Notes under the pieces: generated by a model | Database searches by the model: none | The model's input: only the letters and a program-made list of their open reading frames with translations | Told to the model about the DNA's origin: nothing | Shown here: piece after piece, positions 959 through 64,000 of the stretch | How positions within the stretch are numbered: the first letter of the stretch is position 1 | Layout: the number at the start of each line of letters is the position of its first letter | NCBI GenBank assembly: GCA_018652475.1 | Contig: JABICB010000013.1 | Span: 244-64,243, forward strand | Reading direction: 5' to 3' | From: an archaeon | GTDB taxonomy: Archaea > Nanobdellota > Nanobdellia > SCGC-AAA011-G17 > PNOQ01 | DNA: 64,000 nt | Made by a program: the position numbers and the translations under genes

Positions 959-1364
959 TACAATAATTGAAATTGTTGGAATGCCAAAAGAACATGTAGA
1001 AGAAACTATGAATAAAGTTGTTAGTCTAATCAAAGAAGACAAAGAAATAGAATTAATAACTCATGATACTGCAGAAACAAAACTAGTAAAAGACTTATGG
1101 TCTACATTTACAGAATTTGAATTAGATTTTAACGATTTTAAAAAATTAACAGGATTCTGTTTTGATTTCATGCCTTCTTCTGTAGAAATACTAGAACCTA
1201 CTACTCCAAAAGTATCTTCCGAAGATATTTCAGAATTGTTGAATGATGTCTTAGCAAAAATTCATCAGTATGATATGGCATTAAAAAGAATGATATTAGA
1301 ACAAAGAGCAAAAAAGAAAGTAGAAGATAAAACTAATTCTTCGGAAGAGGCAAAGAAGGAGTAG
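939..1364 (+). CDS. Hypothetical small acidic protein.
   Basis: Clean ORF that overlaps the upstream gene's stop. No motif I can place. Confidence 0.3.
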   Translation: MEKIKINTIIEIVGMPKEHVEETMNKVVSLIKEDKEIELITHDTAETKLVKDLWSTFTEFELDFNDFKKLTGFCFDFMPSSVEILEPTTPKVSSEDISELLNDVLAKIHQYDMALKRMILEQRAKKKVEDKTNSSEEAKKE

Positions 1365-2667
1365 GCCTTTTTTTTACTTTTTTATATATTAAATAACTAA
1401 TTAGACCTATAGATAAAATTATTATTAAAAGGCTAATTAATCCCTTATTTATTTCTGATTCTATTACTTCAGAGTCACAATCACCTGAAGTTGAATTACA
1501 CATCCACCCAGTAGGACACCCAATATCAATACAACTACCTGTTTCTGAATTTATATCACATGAATTTGTAGTTTCATTACAAAAATATCCCTCACTACAG
1601 CCCTCAATAAAACAATCAGAACTAGTTTCCTTCACTTCAATGATTATAGGAAAAGAACTTTGCATATATTCAGTACTGATAGATATATTACCTTCATAAA
1701 TCCCTGATTCTGCATTCATTTCAGAATTGACATATAAATACATTTTTATTTTTTCTCCAGGCTGAACAGAATAGATAGTTTCAGTTTCAAGAATTATAAT
1801 CTCCTCAATATTACCATCCAGTTTAAAACTGACAGTAGAAACAGAGTGATCATAATTATTTTGAATTTCAACATATCCAGTAACATTTTCAGTAGGATAA
1901 ATCTCAAGATTGATTTGATTAGATGGCATAACAAATACTAAGCCTTCATCAGATAAATCAACATCTTCTAAAACTTCATCATCTTCAGAATTTACATTAA
2001 ACCAAACAGGCACTTCATAAATTAAACTATTAGATTCGAATGTTATATACTGTTCAAGAGATGTATCTAATAAAATATTATTTGAATATAAACTCAGAGG
2101 TTCAATCTCCCCTGGTCCAATCTGTATGGTCGAAAGAGATAAATCAAAAATATTATCATCACTAGAAGAAACAAATATATCTAATTCACCCAAACCTGAA
2201 TTTCTTAAACTAAATAAGAAAGTTTGACCAGGATTAGAAGTATCCAAGATTACAATCCCCGGAGAAACATAAAAAGGCACATCAGAAGAGGTTATATTGA
2301 ATAATTCTGTATGATTATTATGAGTGAGGATAGAATTTTCAAAATAAACTAGATTATCAATGAAGATAGTATAATTGCCTAATTCAAGATCAGAATCTAA
2401 ATTAAAATAAATATAATGTTGAGTATTATTTAATTTATAGAACGTAGGCGAAATTGGAATTTTTGAATTATTAAACCATAATGAAAAATCAGCCTGTGCT
2501 AAATTATTTTCCAAATAAATATTTGAATATATCATGGCTTGTAGAGTTTCTCCCGGATGATATTCTTCTTGGCCCAAAAGAACAGTTAATTCATTAGATG
2601 AAACTAAAGGCATAAATAAAATAAATAAAAAGATCAAAAGATAAATTCCTTTTAGTTTTAACATCAT
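1333..2667 (-). CDS. Secreted or surface protein with an N-terminal signal peptide, a C-terminal Cys-rich module and a TM anchor.
   Basis: The N-terminus reads MMLKLKGIYLLIFLFILFMPLVSS. The C-terminus has CxxC-rich segments (CFIEGCSEGYFCNETTNSCD...CPTGWMCNSTSGDCD), then the hydrophobic stretch LISLLIIILSIGLISYLIY and a basic tail. The start overlaps the upstream gene's stop (ATGA at 2664-2667). Confidence 0.5.
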   Translation of the reverse strand: MMLKLKGIYLLIFLFILFMPLVSSNELTVLLGQEEYHPGETLQAMIYSNIYLENNLAQADFSLWFNNSKIPISPTFYKLNNTQHYIYFNLDSDLELGNYTIFIDNLVYFENSILTHNNHTELFNITSSDVPFYVSPGIVILDTSNPGQTFLFSLRNSGLGELDIFVSSSDDNIFDLSLSTIQIGPGEIEPLSLYSNNILLDTSLEQYITFESNSLIYEVPVWFNVNSEDDEVLEDVDLSDEGLVFVMPSNQINLEIYPTENVTGYVEIQNNYDHSVSTVSFKLDGNIEEIIILETETIYSVQPGEKIKMYLYVNSEMNAESGIYEGNISISTEYMQSSFPIIIEVKETSSDCFIEGCSEGYFCNETTNSCDINSETGSCIDIGCPTGWMCNSTSGDCDSEVIESEINKGLISLLIIILSIGLISYLIYKKVKKRPTPSLPLPKN

Positions 2668-4331
2668 TTCTTCCCTTTCAATAAATCCTTTGCCTTACTA
2701 ATTGATTTATCTAATTCACTTTCTAGCAAAGTATCCCTTCTACTTGGTCTATATTGAGAAGGCCTAGGTTTAACTATAGCACGAGTGGAAGGAGGATATG
2801 TAGGATTGATTGGTTTAGAAACAGGGGCAGAACTTGTTGAGGGTAATTTTTTAGATGATCCAAAATTACCACCCTTATATTTATTATATGCATAATATCC
2901 TGCACCAATTCCAATTAAAATAACAATAATAGCTATTAACCATGCTATCCAATTACTTCCTTCTTCATCATCATCAGAAGTTGTATTCGTGGAATCTGGA
3001 GATTCATCTAAAACTTTACAAGTATGAGTTAATGAATCACAATACTCTGGAGATATACAATCTGCATCAGAAGTACAACCAAAAGAAATTGCAGCACAAC
3101 TACATGTATCTACATTACAAGAATAACCAGTAACACAATCATTATCACTCATACAAGCATCTAATTCAGTACATGATTGGGGAGTTACACACATACAATC
3201 AATACAAGTCAATCCGCCATTACAAGGGATACCTGTATCACATTGTTCACCTAATCCGAGAATACCATCTAAACATATAGGAGTCGTTGAAGGCACAGGG
3301 GGAACTTCATTACTAAACATTGCCCAGAGTACCATTGCAGTAGTTTTTACACTGCCTTCCCATGATCCATCTTGTAACTGTTGTAACTTCATCCATTCTA
3401 TTGAATCACTCACTGATGAAGCACCACCTTGATTAGAATTTTTTAAAATATAACTAATTAATGCAGTATTAAATTTATTATTGCCCCAATTCCCACCTAA
3501 CTGATTTTCATTCAACCAATTCGCATAATCATTTTCACCAGTCAGATCTAATAAGAAAGCATTACCCATAGCATCACCAGTACAAGTAGTCTCAAGAAAT
3601 GGATAAGTTGCAGGATTTTCCCCAAGAGAGTTTAAAACAAATCCTGCATATCCAGTATAACCACAATCACAATTATAACTACTACCTGCAAAACATGCAT
3701 TTTCTATAGACAAGGGTAAATTTTCATCGACGATATAATATTGATTAGAATAAGTTTTAAAAATTAAAGAAGGACTAACTGTGACACCTATACAACTAAC
3801 TCCGAATTCTTCTTCAACATCTGCATAACTCCCTAAAACATCATTTTCAAAATCTATCCAATTTGAACCAGTCTCTTCAATAAGAGTATTATTTATCCTA
3901 AACATATAAGAATCATTATCATAAATGATACTGCAAGTAGCATAACCTCCAGTAGTAAGTTGAATTAACCAATTACCATTCTCCATTGCACGAATTCTAT
4001 GATCTAGTAACCATTCAACTTCGGAACTTACATTATTCCCGGTTTTATATAGTGCCAAGGTTGCTAATGCAGTATTATATGCATCACCCCATGAATCATC
4101 ATTTAATTGTTGAGATTCAAGTTCTGCAATACCTTCACTAACATCATACCCAAAATTTCGCAAGGATAGTACTGCTAACGCAACATCATCCACTGGTTTA
4201 TTCCAATTAGATGAATTCATCTGATCATAAAGCCACTCATGAGATTCACTAACATTGAATTCTGCAGAGACTAAATTAATAGAACCTAATAATAAAAATA
4301 CCAAACCAAATAATAAAACTATTTTTTTCAC
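2664..4331 (-). CDS. Surface protein with prenyltransferase/terpene-cyclase-like (QW-type) repeats, a Cys-rich stalk, an S/T/P linker and a C-terminal TM anchor.
   Basis: Signal peptide MKKIVLLFGLVFLLLGSINLVSA. Repeated Q..DGSW / WGD.Y.TALA motifs (QQLNDDSWGDAYNTALATLAL; QQLQDGSWEGSVKTTAMVLWAM) are typical of alpha/alpha-toroid QW repeats. A Cys-dense block (CLDGILGLGEQCDTGIPCNGGLTCIDCMC...) is followed by TSDDDEEG, a TM segment IAWLIAIIVILIGIGAGYYAY and a basic tail. Confidence 0.5.
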   Translation of the reverse strand: MKKIVLLFGLVFLLLGSINLVSAEFNVSESHEWLYDQMNSSNWNKPVDDVALAVLSLRNFGYDVSEGIAELESQQLNDDSWGDAYNTALATLALYKTGNNVSSEVEWLLDHRIRAMENGNWLIQLTTGGYATCSIIYDNDSYMFRINNTLIEETGSNWIDFENDVLGSYADVEEEFGVSCIGVTVSPSLIFKTYSNQYYIVDENLPLSIENACFAGSSYNCDCGYTGYAGFVLNSLGENPATYPFLETTCTGDAMGNAFLLDLTGENDYANWLNENQLGGNWGNNKFNTALISYILKNSNQGGASSVSDSIEWMKLQQLQDGSWEGSVKTTAMVLWAMFSNEVPPVPSTTPICLDGILGLGEQCDTGIPCNGGLTCIDCMCVTPQSCTELDACMSDNDCVTGYSCNVDTCSCAAISFGCTSDADCISPEYCDSLTHTCKVLDESPDSTNTTSDDDEEGSNWIAWLIAIIVILIGIGAGYYAYNKYKGGNFGSSKKLPSTSSAPVSKPINPTYPPSTRAIVKPRPSQYRPSRRDTLLESELDKSISKAKDLLKGKK

Positions 4332-11280: not shown

Positions 11281-12057
11281 ATGTTTTACCTAAAGAAAGG
11301 TATGCCAGAAGATAGTGAAATAGTTCTTTGTTCAGTTAAAAAAGTATCATATCATTCAGTATTTTTAACATTAGATGAATATGAAAATGTTGAAGGAATG
11401 ATGCATATTTCAGAAATAGCACCAGGAAGAATACGAACAATTGGTGACTATGTAAATGTTGGAAAAAAGGTAGTTTGTAAAGTTCTAAAAGTAAGGCCTA
11501 ATACCAATCATGTTGATTTATCTTTACGTAGAGTAAATAAAATGCAAAGATTGAATAAAACTTCTGAATTCAAACAAGAACAAAAAGCAGAAAAATTATT
11601 AGAATTAGTTGGAAAAGAATTAAAAGTAGATCTTGCTGAAATGTACAAAGAAGCAGGATATGAATTAAAAGAAAAATACGGAACAATAAACAATGCATTT
11701 CAAAATTTTGTATTAGATCCAGAACAAATAAAAGAATTAAAAATTAAGAAAAAAGTATCTGAAGTATTATTAAAAACAGTTCTTGAAAAAATAAAACCAA
11801 AAGAAGTAATAGTGTTAGGAGAGTTTACAATATCTAGTTTAGCAGAAAATGGTGCAGAACTAATTAAGAAAATCTTAAAGGACGCACAAAAAGGAACAAT
11901 AAAAATAACCTATATGGGTGCACCTAACTACAAAATAACAGTAACTGCATCAGATTATAAGACTGCAGAAAGCCTTCTAGAAAACGCACACGAAGAAATA
12001 GCAAAAAATATTAAAGAAATAAAGGGAACTTGTGAATTCAAACAAATAAAAAAATAA
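11281..12057 (+). CDS. eif2a: Translation initiation factor 2 alpha subunit (aIF2alpha).
   Basis: An N-terminal S1 domain (PEDSEIVLCSVKKVSYHSVFLTL...GMMHISEIA) is followed by the helical and alpha-beta domains. It sits in the L44e-S27e-aIF2a-Nop10 cluster. Confidence 0.85.
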   Translation: MFYLKKGMPEDSEIVLCSVKKVSYHSVFLTLDEYENVEGMMHISEIAPGRIRTIGDYVNVGKKVVCKVLKVRPNTNHVDLSLRRVNKMQRLNKTSEFKQEQKAEKLLELVGKELKVDLAEMYKEAGYELKEKYGTINNAFQNFVLDPEQIKELKIKKKVSEVLLKTVLEKIKPKEVIVLGEFTISSLAENGAELIKKILKDAQKGTIKITYMGAPNYKITVTASDYKTAESLLENAHEEIAKNIKEIKGTCEFKQIKK

Positions 12058-12058
12058 A

Positions 12059-12220
12059 ATGCGTCCAAAAATATTTAGATGTGAATCTTGCAAAAGATAT
12101 ACTTTATTGAATACTTGCAAAGTTTGCAGAAAAAAAACCGAAAATCCAAAACCTGCTAAATACTCTGCAGATGATAAGTTTGGAAAATATAGAAGAATAG
12201 CAAAAAAAACAAATAAATAG
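12059..12220 (+). CDS. nop10: H/ACA RNP protein Nop10 (53 aa, not in the ORF track).
   Basis: Manual translation gives MRPKIFRCESCKRYTLLNTCKVCRKKTENPKPAKYSADDKFGKYRR. It has a Zn ribbon and the conserved P..YSP.DK tail of Nop10. Confidence 0.8.
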   Translation: MRPKIFRCESCKRYTLLNTCKVCRKKTENPKPAKYSADDKFGKYRRIAKKTNK

Positions 12221-12250
12221 TATTTTAAATTTCTAACATCCCTTGATATT

Positions 12251-12808
12251 ATGAATGAATTAGATTTGATTAAACAAACAGAAATTTATAAAAATTGCAC
12301 AAATATAGTATTTGGAAAAGGAAATAATAAATCAGATATTCTTTTCGTTGGAGAAGCACCAGGAAAAAACGAAGATGAACAAGGATTACCTTTTGTAGGA
12401 GCAGCAGGAAAAAATCTAGATAAACTTCTAAATCAAACTAACCTATGCCCAACTGATATATACATAACTAATATTCTGAAATGTAGGCCTCCGAATAATA
12501 GGGATCCCACTAAAGAAGAAATAGAATTACACACACCATATTTAATTAAACAAATAAAAGAAATGCAACCCAAAATAGTTTGTTCATTAGGAAACTATTC
12601 AACTAAATTCTTTTTAGCAGAAGGAGATATAAAAAAAATGAAACACCAAAAAAATATAACAGAAATACATGGTATACCTATTCATATTTTTTTCAAAGGT
12701 ATAAAAATAAAATTAATTCCCTTATTTCATCCAGCTGCAATGATTTACAATAGAAAATTAATTCCCGGATGGGAAGGAGATATTAAAAAAATAAAAAAAG
12801 AAATGTAA
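12251..12808 (+). CDS. udg: Uracil-DNA glycosylase, family 4.
   Basis: GEAPGKNEDEQGLPFVGAAGKNLDKLL is the family-4 motif (GE.PG..ED..G.PFVG.AG). A C-terminal HPAA is also present. Confidence 0.8.
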   Translation: MNELDLIKQTEIYKNCTNIVFGKGNNKSDILFVGEAPGKNEDEQGLPFVGAAGKNLDKLLNQTNLCPTDIYITNILKCRPPNNRDPTKEEIELHTPYLIKQIKEMQPKIVCSLGNYSTKFFLAEGDIKKMKHQKNITEIHGIPIHIFFKGIKIKLIPLFHPAAMIYNRKLIPGWEGDIKKIKKEM

Positions 12809-13711
12809 TTATTCTCCAATCACATTCATAATTGTTGAAATTTCAGTTTCATACTTGTAACTAATCTTTAATTCAATAACATCACTATATGAATCTGTAG
12901 AAATTATAGATTTATCACAAATCAAAGTTTTAGAACCTTCTTTTAATGAAACTTCTCCAATATTAGATTGACCCGTAGTGAAATGACAAACAACATCAGA
13001 AGGAATAACTTCAACCTTAATCTTGCCTTCATCCATTAACCCAAATGATTCACAATCTCTATCTATTGAATAAACCTTGCCACCTTCTTTATTTTCTATA
13101 ACAAATGCAAATCTAATTCCAGTACTACTAAGGTAACTTTCTGTTAAAGATATAACTTGTATCGGTCCAGAAGATACTGCGCCAGATATTAATTTTTCGC
13201 CAGAAATATCGCAAATTTCAACTCCAGTTTGTTTAATCTTATTTGAACTCATACAAACATTAGAAAATAATTTAGTTTCGTAAGGATAACATAATCTAGC
13301 ATAAATGGGTTGTTCATATGACCCATAAATTTGTTTAACATAACTACCTTCTCCAAGAGAAATTATATTTTCTCCACCGGTTTCGAGAGTTTGATCAATT
13401 CCCATTAAATCCAAAGTATTAGAAACAAAATTTGTATTTAATGCAGGCCATGCATCTTCAGAAAAACCAAATAATTTAACTTTTGCTTGGCCAGCAGAAA
13501 TATCAAATTCTCCCTTATTTGATAATAAGGTCTTAAAGGAAACAATCTCTCCTTGTGAAAATGATGTATATGGTGCACCTTCAATAAAAGACAATACTAA
13601 TCCCTCACTTCCTCCCTTGAACGGACCCTGGGAAATCAATTCCTCTGTTCCACACCCTGACATAAATAACAATAATCCCACTGATATAATTAAAAATAAT
13701 TTAGATTTCAT
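12809..13711 (-). CDS. Putative lipoprotein / secreted protein.
   Basis: MKSKLFLIISVGLLLFMSGCG is a signal peptide with a lipobox-like Cys. The C-terminal ISYKYETEISTIM is paralogous to the end of 13730..14620. Confidence 0.4.
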   Translation of the reverse strand: MKSKLFLIISVGLLLFMSGCGTEELISQGPFKGGSEGLVLSFIEGAPYTSFSQGEIVSFKTLLSNKGEFDISAGQAKVKLFGFSEDAWPALNTNFVSNTLDLMGIDQTLETGGENIISLGEGSYVKQIYGSYEQPIYARLCYPYETKLFSNVCMSSNKIKQTGVEICDISGEKLISGAVSSGPIQVISLTESYLSSTGIRFAFVIENKEGGKVYSIDRDCESFGLMDEGKIKVEVIPSDVVCHFTTGQSNIGEVSLKEGSKTLICDKSIISTDSYSDVIELKISYKYETEISTIMNVIGE

Positions 13712-14663: not shown

Positions 14664-16223
14664 TTAATAATCGAAACAAGAACCATCTACATAAACACAA
14701 GGACCAAAATTACAAAGGTCCGATACACATTCTTCTTCAGCACTATAATCTTCACAACTTGTTGAAGAAAAAGAACAAGACTTACATGAAACGAAATCCC
14801 CACTACTAGAATAAAGAGGCATACATCCTTCTGCAGATAAACACTCCTCATTAATTTCGAAATCATCACATACATCACCCATTTCATTTCTTATAACTGT
14901 AATAACTTCTTTCTTTTCAATTTCATAAACATAATCAACTTCTGCCCTAATTAAACTAAAAAAGAAATCATTACCTTCTGGAAGATCAAGAACTTTAAAA
15001 CTACATTGAAGTTCTATATCCCTAAATTCTTCAATACAATCTGCATCTAGAGCATAATAATTACTATTTGCACAATCCATATTTATTTTATTATTTAAAG
15101 AATGATTAGTAATCTTGTATACTTTGAATCCTTCATAATAATCACCAGTATCTTCAAAATCACATAGCCTTACATCATTACTAAATTCTATAGCCGAAGG
15201 AACATAAAGTTTTAAATCTTTAACACGCTTCAAATTGCCAAAATCCTTAGTAATAAGTTCAACATTAAATAAAACGAAATCACTCTCTTGTGAAAATGGT
15301 TGACTTGTTTCACTACTTAATTTCAGATCAATCGGACCCTCAGTCACTTGAGAAACCATAACATTTTGAGGTTTTATTAATAATTCATTAGTAACTTGAA
15401 TTCGATTATTCATAAAGGGATCTTCACCCATAATTAGAAAAGATTCTAGTAAGTTATGGTCCATAAAATAAACCCTGTAAAAAGATTCGGTTTTAAAATC
15501 ATATTCTGCCTTTAATTTGGCCGTTTCAGAATGTTCATTTTTAGTAGTACTTAATCCTTCTGGAAATATACAACTAATCTCTTGCCTTCTTGTTACTCCT
15601 TTCCCATAAATAGTATAACTTTCAGGATAAATTTCTATTGGCCCATTATAATCCCCCAACTCGCAAAGAAATCTTATTTCCATCCCTTCATCCAATAAAC
15701 CAGCACCGTCTACTATTCCCCTTGCCTGGATAGGTTCGTTAGATAGGAATTTGTCTTTAGTTTCAATAAAACTAATTATATTAACTCCTAAAAAATCATA
15801 CTCTTCATTTTCAATAACTTCAGAACCCCATGCAAAAGTATTTCCTATTTCAGAAGGATTTTTAAATATTTTCCAAAAATTGAATAATCCTGATTCAATC
15901 GGAGCCCCAACACCATCTAGTGCTACAAGTCCTTCTTCTGTCATTGTTGAACCTGCACCAGAACTCCAAACATTAAAAATGAACATTCCAACAAAAAATA
16001 TTAAACCGAGAATTACTATAATCATTATAAATTTCATTAATTTGCCAAATAATATTGCAAAAGAAAATTTAGAGAATTTAAATTTTTTCTTAGGTTTTGA
16101 GGGTTTATCTTCAGGAGTTTCCTCTTTCTCTTCTTCCGCAGAAGTTTCCTCTTTCTCTTCTTCCGCAGAAGTTTCCTCTTCCCCTTCTCCCTCTAATAAA
16201 ACCTCTCTTTTTTCTTCAGTCAT
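14664..16223 (-). CDS. Single-pass membrane protein with a cytoplasmic acidic-repeat N-terminus, a large extracellular domain and a C-terminal Cys-rich module.
   Basis: N-terminal EEEKEETSAEEEKEETSAEEEKEE is encoded by tandem 27-nt repeats. A TM segment FAILFGKLMKFIMIIVILGLIFFVGMFIF follows. The C-terminus is Cys-dense (CDDFEINEECLSAEGCMP...CKSCSFSSTSCEDY...CNFGPCVYVDGSC). Confidence 0.4.
   Translation of the reverse strand: MTEEKREVLLEGEGEEETSAEEEKEETSAEEEKEETPEDKPSKPKKKFKFSKFSFAILFGKLMKFIMIIVILGLIFFVGMFIFNVWSSGAGSTMTEEGLVALDGVGAPIESGLFNFWKIFKNPSEIGNTFAWGSEVIENEEYDFLGVNIISFIETKDKFLSNEPIQARGIVDGAGLLDEGMEIRFLCELGDYNGPIEIYPESYTIYGKGVTRRQEISCIFPEGLSTTKNEHSETAKLKAEYDFKTESFYRVYFMDHNLLESFLIMGEDPFMNNRIQVTNELLIKPQNVMVSQVTEGPIDLKLSSETSQPFSQESDFVLFNVELITKDFGNLKRVKDLKLYVPSAIEFSNDVRLCDFEDTGDYYEGFKVYKITNHSLNNKINMDCANSNYYALDADCIEEFRDIELQCSFKVLDLPEGNDFFFSLIRAEVDYVYEIEKKEVITVIRNEMGDVCDDFEINEECLSAEGCMPLYSSSGDFVSCKSCSFSSTSCEDYSAEEECVSDLCNFGPCVYVDGSCFDY
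16114..16194. repeat. Tandem in-frame 27-nt repeat (about 3 copies) inside the 5' coding region of 14664..16223.
   Basis: ggagtttcctctttctcttcttccgca / gaagtttcctctttctcttcttccgca / gaagtttcctcttcccc... is directly visible. It encodes (AEEEKEETS)n on the minus strand. Confidence 0.8.
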
Positions 16224-58801: not shown

Positions 58802-59518
58802 TTGTATTTTTTCTCAAAACACCATAATTCTACTAATTCTATGGTGAAAATAGCCCCAAAACGCAACATATATAAAGAACTATTGCGAAAAATAAGTATG
58901 TTTAAAGAAAGTAAATCTCAGAGTTCTAGGAATAAATCAAAGTATAATATTTACTATTTACAAATGCCAGAAATAAACAAAATAATTGATGCTGCAAAAA
59001 ATTTAAGGGATGCAACTGTAATAAAAATTTTGGCAAGAACTGGGATGAGGAGATTTGAATTATGTCATATTAAAGTACAAGATATAGATTTTGAAAAAAG
59101 AAGAATTTTTATTTCAAAAGCTAAGGGAAATAAACAAAGAACTGTACCAATAGATCAAGATACGTTACAAACAATTCGGTTTTATATGAGGTCTCGACAA
59201 TACGGTAAACTAATACAAAGTAATAAGAAAAATGTAGATGGGATTGATGAAAGTAGGATAAACGCAATAGTGAAGAATACTGCTCTTAGGGCAGGAATAA
59301 AGCACCCTGATCCATCGAAAAAAAACATGAACCCTCATATATTCAGGCACAGTTTTATACGTCATTTGATCAAACAAAATGTACCTCCCAATTACGTTCA
59401 ACAAATAGCTGGACATGCAGATATAAGGACCACATTACAGATGTATGGTATTCCTGGAATTTCAGATGTTCAAGAAAAATATGAGGAAATTTCTAGTACT
59501 TTTTATAATAATCCTTGA
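58802..59518 (+). CDS. Short tyrosine recombinase/integrase: catalytic domain only, with no core-binding N-domain. The likely real start is the ATG at about 58841.
   Basis: Box I Arg is in VIKILARTGMRRFELCHIKVQDID. K is in SKAKGNKQRTVPI. Box II is HIFRHSFIRHLIKQNVPPNYVQQIAGHADIRTTLQMY (H-x-x-R ... catalytic Y). Confidence 0.8.
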   Translation: MYFFSKHHNSTNSMVKIAPKRNIYKELLRKISMFKESKSQSSRNKSKYNIYYLQMPEINKIIDAAKNLRDATVIKILARTGMRRFELCHIKVQDIDFEKRRIFISKAKGNKQRTVPIDQDTLQTIRFYMRSRQYGKLIQSNKKNVDGIDESRINAIVKNTALRAGIKHPDPSKKNMNPHIFRHSFIRHLIKQNVPPNYVQQIAGHADIRTTLQMYGIPGISDVQEKYEEISSTFYNNP

Positions 59519-59622: not shown

Positions 59623-59856
59623 ATGGGTAAAATTATACTTAAAGGTGTTGTAGAAAGAAAGCCAGGTCACTTGTACTATATCGACGGTAAAGGTAATGTA
59701 TGTGAGGCTAAAATGGCAAGAGGCGGAAAGAAGAAAAAAAAGAAGCCAGCAGCTAAAAAAACTGTCAAAAAAGTTGTAAAAAAGACAGTAAAGAAAAAAA
59801 TAACTGCAAAAAAAACTACAGCAAAAAAAAAGCCAGCTAAAAAGAAAAAGAAATAA
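59623..59856 (+). CDS. Small Lys-rich basic protein with a histone-H1-like (AKKx)n tail.
   Basis: A strong SD (AAGGAGG) lies 8 nt upstream. The protein is MGKIILKGVVERKPGHLYYIDGKGNVCEAKMARGG followed by KKKKKKPAAKKTVKKVVKKTVKKKITAKKTTAKKKPAKKKKK. Confidence 0.5.
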   Translation: MGKIILKGVVERKPGHLYYIDGKGNVCEAKMARGGKKKKKKPAAKKTVKKVVKKTVKKKITAKKTTAKKKPAKKKKK

Positions 59857-61098: not shown

Positions 61099-61872
61099 AT
61101 GGTTGACATAAAACTTTTACATTTTATTAAGGATGGAATAAAAAAAGGATATTCTCATACTGAATTAAAATCAATCTTAAAAGAGAATGGGTGGGATGAT
61201 ACAGAAATAGAATCCACCTTGACATCTTTAAAAAAACCAAGGCTCCAAGAATCTCAACCCCTCCCTATACAGAAGTCAAATTTAAATCTTCTAAATAAAT
61301 TTATCAAAACATCATTACAAAAAGGTGCACGTGAACATGAAATAAGGCTGGCACTATTATCCAAGGGATGGCCAGTTGAAAAGATAAATAAAGCATTTAT
61401 TCGGTTAAAAGAAAATCGCCCAATTCAACCACAGGCAGAACAATCATTAGAAATGGTGGGCTATGCGGCTAAGAAACCACTACAAAAAAAAGAAACAATA
61501 AAAACTGAAGAAAAACCTAAAACACATTTCAAAATAGATGGAAGAAAAATTTTAATTTATATTTTGAGTTTTATCCTGATCACCGCAATAATCTCTGGAA
61601 CCTTTTCAGTATTCTATTTCATGCTAGGAATTAATTCTCATGAAGGTAATTGTAATTCAGGACTTTGTGCAGATACAAAAGATTATGCAATGAACTATGC
61701 AATTGACAATATGTTTATGGCATTGATAATAAGTTCTATTCTTGCATTTGCAGTAGTATTAACTTACGCATTTATTCCAAATAAAGATATATTACTATGG
61801 ATAGTAAATTTATTTTACTTATTATTTACTTTATTCATAGCATTTCTCTGGTTAAAATTTGTTACTAAATAA
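61099..61872 (+). CDS. Membrane protein with a duplicated N-terminal cytoplasmic module.
   Basis: An internal repeat is visible: IKDGIKKGYSHTELKSILKENGWDDTEIESTL and IKTSLQKGAREHEIRLALLSKGWPVEKINKAF. Three C-terminal TM helices follow. Confidence 0.35.
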   Translation: MVDIKLLHFIKDGIKKGYSHTELKSILKENGWDDTEIESTLTSLKKPRLQESQPLPIQKSNLNLLNKFIKTSLQKGAREHEIRLALLSKGWPVEKINKAFIRLKENRPIQPQAEQSLEMVGYAAKKPLQKKETIKTEEKPKTHFKIDGRKILIYILSFILITAIISGTFSVFYFMLGINSHEGNCNSGLCADTKDYAMNYAIDNMFMALIISSILAFAVVLTYAFIPNKDILLWIVNLFYLLFTLFIAFLWLKFVTK

Positions 61873-61920
61873 ACAAAAGTTTTTTAAGGCAAAATTTAAC
61901 CTATTATTTAATTATTTTTT

Positions 61921-61995
61921 GGGCTCATAACTCAGCCTGGTCAGAGTGCATGGCTCTTAACCATGAAGCCGCGGGTTCGAATCCCGTTGGGCCCA
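61921..61995 (+). tRNA. tRNA-Lys (anticodon CUU).
   Basis: Hand-folded cloverleaf. The acceptor GGGCTCA pairs with TGGGCCC. D-arm ACTC/GAGT. Anticodon stem CATGG/CCATG with loop CTCTTAA, anticodon CTT. T-arm GCGGG-TTCGAAT-CCCGT. Discriminator A. Followed by T9. The G+C content is far above the local background. Confidence 0.85.
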
Positions 61996-62077
61996 TTTTT
62001 TTTTAACACAAATCATAGAAAGGTTTAAATAAATAAATAAATAATGCATTCTTATTATATTTAAGTGGTGATAATTT

Positions 62078-64000
62078 ATGAACATTAAAAAGAAAAGTAT
62101 GTGGATATTGTTGGTATTATTATTTGGTTCTATTTTTTTCATTTCTGAATCAGTTAAAGCAGATAACGATTGGCTAAATGTCGAAAAGCCTGCTGGCAAA
62201 ATAAATGTAGATGCACAAGATTTAGAAGTATCACCAATTAATTCTTGGCGAAATATTTATTGTGGTAAAACTCTTTGTGGTTATGCAGGGGAATGTGCCA
62301 ATAATGAAATGTGCCAGGTTAGAAAAAGATGGGTATGGCCAAGGCCTCATATTCAAGAATCATCTAGAAGTCCGATCAATATTCAAAAGATAAATACAAA
62401 AAGGATTACCGCTATTGAAGATAGTATAAATATTAATGAACAAGTAGATAAATTAGAAGATGAAAAAAATATATTAAAAAATTTAAGATATTATTTTTTT
62501 AATCAATTCAGATGTCACGAATCAACACTTTGTGTAAATTCGTGTGAAGATGGAGTTGACAATGATGGTGATGCCAATTTAGATGCAGTAATAATTGAAT
62601 CTGCGGAAACATATTTTGAAGAAAATAATATTCAAGGAGTCAGTCTTTCTGAAGAAAATTGTAATAATAGTGGAGAGGATCCAAGAACTGAAGAAAGTAA
62701 TTGTATGTTATTATTCAATGATGCATATGATGATCCGGAATTTCTGATTAGTGGAATGGGGGCATGCACAAATGAAGAGATACAAGGGCAGACAAGAGAA
62801 ATAGTAGTACCTTATTCAGAAAATTGTGATCCTAATTATAATAGGGTGTCAGTTTCGAATCCAATTTATGAAGCATTCGGAGACATACTAGATAATTCAA
62901 ATTTATGTGAATCTGCCTTTACTTGGTGTTGCATAGATATGTCTTCAGAGGCATATAATAATACTGGAGTGATAGGTGGAGTAAATAATTTCAGATATTG
63001 CGGGGATGGCTACTGTCAAGGGTGGCAAGGCGGCATTTCCACAGGAAATGAATCAGATTTAGAAGAAGGTTGGACTTTGGAAACAGCAGAATCACATTTT
63101 AGTTGTTCATGGGCAGATTCCACTGGAACGATTAATCATGATTGTACTTCTACTGGGATAGATTGTGATTGGATTCAGTGGGTAGGTCAAGAAGATTATG
63201 AGTCTTGTCAAAGTGGAGATTTAACTGAAATAGATGGAAGTGAAGTTCAAATAAATTGGATAAATTCTACGGGCTGTAGTTTTGGAGAGCATAGGAGATC
63301 TTGTACAGTTGGAGGTTTTCATTGGACTGAGTGGGATTTTTGTGATGGTATAAATCCAACAGAATATAATTATGAAGAAACTTGTAATGATAATTTAGAT
63401 GGAGATTGTGACGGAGATACAGATAGTTATGATGCTGACTGTGGTAGTTGTATAGATGGAACAATTGAAAATCAGCAATGTGGGGTATCTAATATAGGGC
63501 AATGTGCAATGGGTGTAGAATATTCAGACTGTACCTTTACTGGTAGATTTTGGGAACAAGGCTCATGGCATGATTGTACTGCGACTCTTCCAGATGTCGA
63601 ACAATGTAATGATGGAATAGACAATGACTGTGATGGTGATATAGATAGTTTAGATGAAGAATGTGGCAGTTGTATAGATGGAACACTTGATACACAATCT
63701 TGTGGGGAAACAGAGATAGGTATTTGTACCTTGGGTACAGAATATTCAGACTGTGAATATAATTCAGATACCGACAGATGGAATTATGGGGGATGGTATG
63801 GTTGTACTGCAACTTTCCCACAAACAGAGCAATGTAATGATATAGATAGTTTTGATGAAGATTGTGATGGGACTTCAAATGACGAAGATGAAGAATGTGG
63901 CAGTTGTGTCATGGGTGATAGCCTAGATAGATCTTGTGGAAATTCAGAGATAGGTATTTGTACCTTGGGTACAGAATATTCAGACTGTGAATGGACTGGA
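62078..64000 (+). CDS. Secreted Cys-rich repeat protein with MopE-like (CxDxDxDCDG) putative metal/Ca-binding modules. The 3' end is partial and runs off the window.
   Basis: Not in the ORF track because there is no stop within the window. I translated it manually. Signal peptide MNIKKKSMWILLVLLFGSIFFISESVKA. Repeated modules are CNDGIDNDCDGDIDSLDEECGSCIDGT...SCGETEIGICTLGTEYSDCE. A GGTGA SD lies 8 nt upstream. Confidence 0.6.
   Translation, partial: MNIKKKSMWILLVLLFGSIFFISESVKADNDWLNVEKPAGKINVDAQDLEVSPINSWRNIYCGKTLCGYAGECANNEMCQVRKRWVWPRPHIQESSRSPINIQKINTKRITAIEDSININEQVDKLEDEKNILKNLRYYFFNQFRCHESTLCVNSCEDGVDNDGDANLDAVIIESAETYFEENNIQGVSLSEENCNNSGEDPRTEESNCMLLFNDAYDDPEFLISGMGACTNEEIQGQTREIVVPYSENCDPNYNRVSVSNPIYEAFGDILDNSNLCESAFTWCCIDMSSEAYNNTGVIGGVNNFRYCGDGYCQGWQGGISTGNESDLEEGWTLETAESHFSCSWADSTGTINHDCTSTGIDCDWIQWVGQEDYESCQSGDLTEIDGSEVQINWINSTGCSFGEHRRSCTVGGFHWTEWDFCDGINPTEYNYEETCNDNLDGDCDGDTDSYDADCGSCIDGTIENQQCGVSNIGQCAMGVEYSDCTFTGRFWEQGSWHDCTATLPDVEQCNDGIDNDCDGDIDSLDEECGSCIDGTLDTQSCGETEIGICTLGTEYSDCEYNSDTDRWNYGGWYGCTATFPQTEQCNDIDSFDEDCDGTSNDEDEECGSCVMGDSLDRSCGNSEIGICTLGTEYSDCEWTG
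63400..64000. repeat. Intragenic tandem repeats of about 240 nt (at least 3 copies) in the Cys-rich protein gene.
   Basis: Exact 45-nt matches gagataggtatttgtaccttgggtacagaatattcagactgtgaa occur at about 63706 and 63946. gaatgtggcagttgt occurs at about 63661 and 63895, and a similar copy at about 63430-63540. Confidence 0.7.

Follow-up and report, generated by a model that had tools for sequence, protein, structure and literature searches.

The stretch of archaeal DNA analysed here (the window; 64,000 nucleotides (nt) of contig JABICB010000013.1) closes within an open reading frame (ORF) that starts with an ATG at position 62078 and is free of stop codons up to position 64000, covering 641 codons. 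Its Cys content is 7.2%, whereas values of 0.2-4% were obtained for the remaining long ORFs. The locus raises the question of what kind of protein is encoded by this gene, which metal its Cys/Asp modules might bind, and whether it acts together with its neighbours. The reading towards which we lean is that the gene, from an uncultured marine DPANN-type archaeon, codes for a secreted protein that serves as one subunit of an extracellular structure for binding, in which a modular stalk stiffened by Ca2+ would carry a beta-propeller head.

Intact gene and its repeat modules

The full-length product, P0005, was reached via the upstream neighbour (61099-61872) on a 60-kb contig of the Joint Genome Institute (JGI) with identical neighbours. 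It comprises 1,253 amino acids (aa) and shows a single difference to the window translation, S198G, in the first 641 residues. Since P0005 gives a complete 1,253-aa frame with only one substitution in this part, the gene is intact and not a pseudogene. The frame disruption just beyond the window, which the initial annotation had named among the findings that would overturn it, is thus absent from the downstream sequence. Five more ENA contigs have the same 5' part of the gene. The gene had also been regarded as unannotated; NCBI carries it as MBT4334599.1 (hypothetical protein, partial; 672 aa), which falls into the same 90% cluster as P0005.

P0005 consists of a signal peptide (aa 1-28), a Cys-rich N-terminal domain (N-domain; aa 29-425), five modules (aa 426-829), an extra acidic loop (aa 830-846) and a C-terminal domain (C-domain) of about 400 aa. 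A matching architecture was observed in orthologues with lengths of 1,116 and 1,185 aa. The N-terminus, MNIKKKSMWILLVLLFGSIFFISESVKA followed by DN after the cleavage site, contains a Lys-rich n-region, a hydrophobic core with a mean Kyte-Doolittle value of 2.97 over 12 aa, and a V-K-A site of the small-x-small type, so that the protein looks like one secreted via a Sec-type signal peptide. Hydropathy analysis revealed no second transmembrane-like or hydrophobic segment anywhere in the full-length protein. This N-terminus and the Cys content bear out the earlier description of a secreted, Cys/Asp-rich protein. The view that it is built from repeat modules had to be narrowed, since the Cys/Asp modules make up about the middle third and would form a stalk (aa 426-846 of 1,253) between the N-domain and the predicted C-terminal beta-propeller.

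The proposal of at least three tandem modules held true for the window, where the last of the three is truncated at position 64000 and module-against-module BLASTP gave E values of 5e-16 to 1e-24. The modules in the window have a length of 74-76 aa (222-234 nt) rather than about 80 aa; the five modules of the full protein range from 74 to 94 aa with 8 Cys each. The order of residues is C-TAT-x-P ... C-N-D-x2-D-x-D-C-D-G-x2-D-S-x-D-x2-C-G-S-C-x9-C-G-x5-G-x-C-x2-G-x3-D-C-x10-14-W, and 17 columns, including all 7 aligned Cys, are invariant over eight modules. The modules had been called near-identical in DNA. An identity of 42-62% was found on the protein level in the window, and on the nucleotide level of 63% for modules 1 and 2 (M1/M2) and 71% for M2/M3 over aligned codons. 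Two strings had been assigned to every module. The acidic string CNDGIDNDCDGDIDSLDEEC is present in M2 only, with CNDNLDGDCDGDTDSYDADC in M1 and CNDIDSFDEDCDGTSNDEDEEC in M3, and the Cys-framework string GICTLGTEYSDCE is confined to M2 and M3. The array was not reported by Tandem Repeats Finder.

Instead of the exact 45-mers 240 nt apart described initially, one exact 48-mer was identified at 63711 and 63945, with a spacing of 234 nt; the next-longest exact repeat is a 22-mer at 63652/63886. The chance of a run of 48 matches at 71% identity is about 0.71^48, or about 7e-8. Because such a run is improbable by chance and synonymous sites are also identical, the patch was ascribed to gene conversion and not to selection on the peptide. 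In the orthologous locus L006, exact patches of 77 and 52 nt lie inside modules which are 73% identical. Short identical DNA tracts between neighbouring modules thus look like the outcome of gene conversion.

The number of modules differs across the orthologues (5, 3 and 3). Individual module types are recognisably orthologous, and M3 corresponds to module 2 of P0002, the orthologue encoded by L006. The sole recent duplication is that of M4/M5, with the first 39 aa identical, and lies beyond the window; the window modules are old and diverged, and do not represent the recent expansion that had been proposed for them. The M4/M5 duplication probably explains why the assembly of the metagenome-assembled genome (MAG) broke inside the repeats. 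In this NCBI MAG, P0001 (HOD61_02170) ends in module 4, while in P0006 (HOD61_03355), encoded on a separate contig, the tail of module 2 is followed immediately by module 5. The conflicting paths M2-M3-M4 and M2-M5 reflect either a three-module allele or an assembly collapse. These breaks are what could be held in favour of the gene being a pseudogene or an artefact of repeat collapse, an explanation which is barely credible in view of the one uninterrupted 1,253-aa frame in the independent JGI assembly, the five ENA contigs with the same 5' part, and the orthologues of 1,116 and 1,185 aa with the same architecture.

Relation to PF11617 and the predicted binding of calcium

The modules had been assigned to the MopE-type repeats of PF11617. 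The gathering threshold of this family is 27 bits for a model of 30 columns, and the cut-off of NF033662, the acidic double-disulfide repeat, is 41 bits. P0018, a distant orthologue built from the same three parts, exceeds the PF11617 threshold at 33.4 bits. A score of 59.4 bits was obtained for P0004/P0014 (MDA3840691.1) from Patescibacteria, designated by NCBI a putative metal-binding motif-containing protein. The window protein matched P0004 in phmmer with an E value of 1.1e-6, and a profile of the eight modules was aligned to P0004 by hhalign with a probability of 96.5% (E 8.7e-10) over 50 columns, which include the acidic loop and the CG-x-C...CG...G-x-C part. Because of these links to P0004 and the score of P0018 above the cut-off, the relationship of the modules to PF11617-type repeats is regarded as real. 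Of the original assignment, the loop core C-x-D-x2-D-N-D-C-D-G and the hhalign link were retained, and the Pfam threshold and the first half of the model were not reached. PF11617 gave no match to the window fragment at E<=1, and the full motif was not covered, with the best stretches spanning profile columns 14/15 to 29/30 only (15-29 for module 2).

Like the modules, the PF11617 proteins of Myxococcota, Patescibacteria and others are secreted and contain in tandem an acidic Cys loop, E-x-C-x-D-G-x-D-N-D-C-D-G-x-x-D; P0004 additionally has the downstream segment CG-x-C...C-G-x4-G-x-C-x2-G of the modules. Unlike in PF11617, a shorter C-T-A-T-x-P segment replaces the first half of the model, and each motif forms part of an 8-Cys module of constant layout (74-76 aa), in a protein that also contains a novel N-domain and a predicted propeller. 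What is new here is the architecture, in which a divergent PF11617-type repeat is joined to an N-domain not described before; the repeat kind itself is known. The gain in annotation is modest: an entry listed as 'hypothetical protein, partial' can now be described at full length, as a secreted protein of three domains that contains a known repeat in divergent form.

A literal reading of the Pfam name, Cu-binding_MopE, would make the product a MopE-like copper-binding or copper-scavenging protein, for which the resemblance to half of the PF11617 motif could be cited. However, MopE binds copper with high affinity through two His and a kynurenine (PMC3423442), and a site of this kind did not come to light in the studied protein, with no search aimed at it. 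PF11617 corresponds to no more than a small part of MopE/CorA and is not specific (PMC6189053). The rest of MopE found no counterpart, since phmmer of the full-length P0005 against all PDB sequences resulted in 0 matches at E<=10; the presence of MopE* among these sequences was taken from the crystallographic work cited in PMC3423442 and PMC3278476. In the loop, the conserved positions are occupied by Asp, Asn and Glu, which are hard-oxygen ligands suited to Ca2+. On these grounds a copper protein is very unlikely, and the motif makes Ca2+ the more likely metal.

The motif has earlier been aligned with the Cys-rich region of teneurin (PMC3278476). In a profile search, the only PDB sequence matching the acidic loop was the C-rich domain of teneurin-4 (7PLP), with an E value of 0.81, which is not significant. 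The 1.5 Å structure of this domain contains three Ca2+ in thrombospondin-type-3-like and low-density lipoprotein receptor class A-like coordination, with E835, D840, D843, N844, D845, D847, D851, D854 and D856 as ligands (PMC9058538). These nine ligand positions were mapped onto the modules, a comparison which tests motif conservation only. All nine are kept in M1 of P0002, eight in M1 of the studied protein and in each of M1 and M2 of P0018, and seven in M4/M5 and in M2, the latter with an additional D-to-E change. For the degenerate loop CEDGVDNDGDANLD in the N-domain, six of the nine positions are identical and one is conservative. The central D-x-D-x-D-G is a classical calcium loop. Since seven to nine of the nine teneurin ligands are kept together with this loop, the modules probably bind Ca2+ in a structural role.

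The teneurin C-rich domain has the same acidic spacing, C-x-D-x2-D-N-D-x-D-G-x2-D-x2-D-x-[DE]-C, as the modules. Like the teneurin domain, the modules would be extracellular, disulfide-stabilised and set beside a beta-propeller-containing ectodomain. Via teneurin, a link is given to thrombospondin type-3 repeats and to low-density lipoprotein receptor class A modules. In the modules, an extra Cys is located at the position of teneurin G846 and a Ser at that of C852, and teneurin has one copy, compared to five or more here. The likeness is therefore described as a shared motif with a likely shared mode of Ca2+ binding, and homology is not claimed. PF11617, a copper family by its Pfam name, would in this respect keep the Ca2+ ligands solved in the teneurin C-rich domain, which would help to correct the annotation of thousands of proteins.

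N-domain, predicted propeller and the three-gene set

For the N-domain, no match was obtained in Pfam (0 families), NCBIfam or the PDB, and a PDB profile search revealed nothing significant. A profile of the three orthologous N-domains identified seven proteins in all among 1.84 billion representative proteins, namely two orthologue clusters, the full-architecture P0018, the proteins P0015, P0016 and P0017 (about 460-570 aa), which have the N-domain alone in common, and P0019, which is possibly chimeric. P0015 is encoded by the next gene downstream in the window organism, after a gap of 7 nt. The window protein and the downstream paralogue in L006 were aligned by BLASTP over about 300 residues (6e-29). 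By these searches, the N-domain is restricted to a handful of archaeal lineages and has been undescribed so far.

Several features of the proteins with this domain were observed in addition. After the N-domain, the downstream paralogue (L006:13382-14770 (+); P0015; L014:11562-13271) contains three copies of the motif [LS]S-x-x-[TD]N[AG]H[IVA]...Y...(C)C, like SNKTNAHISL, SDETNAHAEL and SSLTNAHVGDC...CCHY, and the protein ends with CC-x-Y; a Pfam match was not found for it. In P0019 (438 aa), the first 215 residues or so are identical to the L006 paralogue and are followed by an unrelated Ser/Thr/Gly-rich half, so that a chimeric contig or a recombinant gene is possible. P0018 and P0017 (L014:8001-11558 and 11562-13271) start with the lipobox-like N-termini …LIFISSC and …LLISSC, which are not of the VKA type. 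These signals hint at a lipid anchoring of the family in that lineage.

The C-domain was modelled with AlphaFold2 from two orthologue sequences. The model is all-beta with 28 strands (7 x 4), at a predicted template modelling score (pTM) of 0.73 and a mean predicted local distance difference test value (pLDDT) of 61.9. With this model, Foldseek retrieved sialidases, polysaccharide lyases (PL) of families PL42 and PL24/25, and glycoside hydrolases (GH) of family GH145, with E values of 1e-9 to 1e-8 and template modelling (TM) scores of 0.47-0.58. A canonical Asp-box is present once in P0005 (SEDNGESW) and twice in P0002, so that the predicted beta-propeller fold is combined with Asp-boxes. The C-domain was compared to sialidase/BNR and lectin propellers, namely the P. 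gingivalis sialidase (8GN6), GH145 (5MUM/5MUK), PL42 (7ESK), and the PLL and BP39L lectins (5C9O/6GXR). Its 28 predicted strands fit seven blades, whereas classical sialidases have six. The identity to these propellers is 9-15%, no family hidden Markov model reached its threshold, and catalytic or sugar-binding residues are not identifiable. BNR_2 (PF13088) scored 12.6 bits against a threshold of 31.4 (E 0.084), and the GH145 rhamnosidase model NF052497 scored 15.2 against 700 bits (E 0.0058). PDB sequence and profile searches with the full protein, the N-domain and the C-domain gave nothing significant. A word-index homologue search with the C-domain and the eight-module alignment came back empty, which says little, since the known orthologues were missed too. 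From the model, it is reasonably safe to regard the C-domain as a probable seven-bladed propeller of the sialidase/lectin kind.

The same structural neighbours are the starting point of the main rival explanation, which deserves serious weight and is nevertheless doubtful on balance. By this explanation the protein would be a secreted carbohydrate-active enzyme, with a catalytic propeller of the sialidase, GH145 rhamnosidase or PL24/25/42 lyase type, with modules serving as a stabilising linker, and with an N-domain for carbohydrate binding or targeting. In the alignment of the three orthologous C-domains, only few charged residues are invariant, and both identity and model quality are too low for mapping an active site.

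For the studied gene, a conserved neighbourhood was identified in a genome that PolD and PAC2 mark as archaeal. The gene order is PAC2, a 257-aa membrane protein, tRNA-Lys, the studied gene, the 458-aa paralogue, a 356-aa gene, an 89-aa gene and seryl-tRNA synthetase (SerRS). The same order is present in the species carrying P0002 (L006; 40% identical; Saanich Inlet, 200 m). In a third lineage, L014, the trio is adjacent (1,185, 569 and 408 aa), with different flanks; a CCA-adding enzyme, the proteasome and a beta-CASP protein of the aCPSF1 type serve there as archaeal markers. The main argument for a functional unit is that the trio is kept together while the neighbourhood changes, which suggests that the three genes belong together. 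Scans of metagenomes and GTDB genomes returned the P0002-type locus and one Woesearchaeota-labelled fragment only, and no further copy of the studied gene; the fragment, from a GTDB representative titled Candidatus Woesearchaeota, matches the N-terminus of P0002 with 81% identity.

The third gene of the set follows P0015 after 36 nt and starts with MKKKGMSPLIATILIIGF. Its N-terminus is MKK[KR]G[IM]SPLIAT[IV]L[IL]IG in all three lineages, and the L006 protein passes Pilin_N (PF07790) with 28 against 25.2 bits. With a class III signal and a hydrophobic N-terminus, it resembles archaeal type IV pilin-like proteins. In contrast, the signal peptide of the studied protein is of the ordinary kind; the protein is not a pilin, and its association with the pilin-like gene is given by conserved gene order only. 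As a further observation, the third gene (L006:14817-15998; L012:2595-2708; L014:13306-14532) combines the pilin-like N-terminus MKKRGISPLIATVLIVGF with a separate acidic Cys loop, PKCNDTIDNDDDGYGDEDDPDC, and a C-terminal part that resembles a beta-helix.

Our preferred reading, a secreted binding subunit with a calcium-stiffened stalk and a propeller head, would work as follows. The acidic loop C-x-D-x2-D-N-D-C-D-G-x2-D-x2-D-x2-C that opens each module is of the DxDxDG type, which also occurs in PF11617, in thrombospondin type-3 repeats and in the C-rich domain of teneurin; it may chelate two or three Ca2+ and, together with four disulfides, would give a rigid module. The array would then act as a calcium-stiffened stalk by which the propeller, a probable glycan- or ligand-binding head, is held off the cell. 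By means of the common N-domain and the pilin-like third protein, the three products may come together as a single surface structure by which the cell would attach itself, plausibly to a host. Gene conversion tracts together with the gain and loss of modules would cause the stalk length to vary between lineages.

A number of results weigh against this reading. For the modules, the PF11617 threshold was missed by P0005 (9.6 bits, E 1.4), by P0002 (11.7 bits) and by single module 2 (14.6 bits, E 0.039), and NF033662 remained below its cut-off for the window fragment (11.2 bits), P0002 (15.8 bits) and a single module (11.6 bits). A significant similarity to the teneurin C-rich domain was not found (E 0.81), and the teneurin pattern of six Cys paired 1-3, 2-5 and 4-6 does not apply, since DNDCDG stands in place of DNDGDG, a Ser in place of C852, and the modules contain 8 Cys. 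An AlphaFold2 model of residues 29-641, comprising N-domain and modules, was calculated from seven sequences and is unusable for fold or disulfide pairing (mean pLDDT 35, pTM 0.26). The propeller model is of moderate confidence only, with its mean pLDDT of 61.9 from two sequences. Since both enzymes and lectins are found among its nearest structural neighbours, the term binding head reflects a choice and is not a result. In the window organism and L014, the third gene reached only 15.7-15.8 bits on Pilin_N. Finally, a membrane anchor, a PGF-CTERM-like tail or a lipobox was not present in the studied protein, so that its retention at the surface is assumed.

Large secreted proteins with Ca2+-type motifs could also serve in the cell envelope. 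Calcium commonly stabilises archaeal surface layers (S-layers), and the gene is conserved beside housekeeping genes in two lineages. Accordingly, a structural envelope or S-layer-associated protein was considered, which would have no specific ligand and in which repeats and propeller would build a surface lattice. However, the family is too rare for a core envelope component, with 7 clusters in 1.84e9 representatives and 2 loci among GTDB species representatives; an anchor is absent, and the gene is linked to a pilin-like gene and not to S-layer genes. A purely structural role is thus clearly unlikely.

For DPANN archaea, a life in attachment to other cells is generally assumed, and to our knowledge very few of their attachment proteins are known. 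A literature search on Cys-rich adhesins of DPANN archaea gave nothing relevant. The locus offers a concrete three-gene candidate for attachment, present in three lineages and with clearly separable domains. Taken further, the three genes might represent an undescribed attachment apparatus of a small marine DPANN clade, consisting of a pilin-like anchor or filament and two subunits docked via their N-domains, one of which would carry the propeller on a stalk of variable length, tuned by gene conversion and module gain or loss, and would bind the host surface. In this complete form, the proposal is speculative and must be rated as unlikely.

Feature coordinates and other genes of the window

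The coordinates of the features are collected in the table below. For the TATA-box-like element, the consensus was taken from the general knowledge of archaeal promoters.

Table. Position of the studied gene, its upstream signals and its predicted parts in the window
Feature	Coordinates	Strand	Basis or remark
Studied gene, first 641 of 1,253 codons	62078..64000	+	stop-free translation; gene continues past window end
tRNA-Lys(CTT), immediately upstream	61920..61996	+	context only; ARAGORN; Rfam tRNA 67.9 bits; equivalent position in orthologous locus L006
TTTAAATA, archaeal TATA-box-like element about 50 nt before start codon	62024..62031	+	inferred from sequence
GGTGAT, Shine-Dalgarno-like, 5 nt before ATG	62067..62072	+	inferred from sequence
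Signal peptide, aa 1-28, predicted cleavage after VKA	62078..62161	+	sequence features and hydropathy
Cys-rich N-domain, aa 29-425, 23 Cys	62162..63352	+	core aa 57-351 paralogous to product of next gene
Degenerate acidic loop CEDGVDNDGDANLD within N-domain	62543..62584	+	regex scan; teneurin-type-like, G replacing second Cys
Module 1, aa 426-499, with CNDNLDGDCDGDTDSYDADCGSC...QCG...GQCAMGVEYSDC	63353..63574	+	
Module 2, aa 500-575, 8 Cys, with CNDGIDNDCDGDIDSLDEECGSC...SCG...GICTLGTEYSDC	63575..63802	+	
Module 3, aa 576-641, acidic loop CNDIDSFDEDCDGTSNDEDEEC with 2-aa insertion	63803..64000	+	truncated by window end
Exact 48-nt patch, copy 1, common to modules 2 and 3	63711..63758	+	host modules 71% identical overall
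Exact 48-nt patch, copy 2, 234 nt downstream of copy 1	63945..63992	+	

Three ORFs on the minus strand opposite the studied gene (63267-63464, 63472-63624 and 63537-63878) were discounted as a side effect of coding-strand composition. Upstream, a gene for a tyrosine recombinase (Phage_integrase/MrpR_C_cat; 58802-59518 (+)) is located 2.4 kb before the tRNA-Lys gene (61920-61996 (+)), which gives the region the look of an integration hotspot. A mobile element made up of tRNA and integrase was ruled out, since the Xer-like integrase, PAC2, tRNA-Lys and SerRS are syntenic in the species with the 40%-identical orthologue; the recombinase is probably a chromosomal one of the Xer type. In a 77-aa protein (59623-59856 (+)), a short globular N-terminal part, MGKIILKGVVERKPGHLYYIDGKGNVCEAKM, precedes a Lys-rich tail; the corresponding gene call on the JGI contig has no recorded Pfam entry.

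Two further Cys-rich surface proteins appear to be encoded at the other end of the window by the adjacent genes 1333-2667 (-) and 2664-4331 (-). Both are predicted to be secreted and to have a C-terminal membrane anchor that is preceded by a Cys-rich stretch, for example CLDGILGLGEQCDTGIPCNGGLTCIDCMC. In addition, a 519-aa protein (14664-16223 (-)) contains an N-terminal acidic EEEKEETSAEEEKEE repeat, one transmembrane segment and a Cys-rich C-terminal tail (…CKSCSFSSTSCEDYSAEEECVSDLCNFGPCVYVDGSCFDY).

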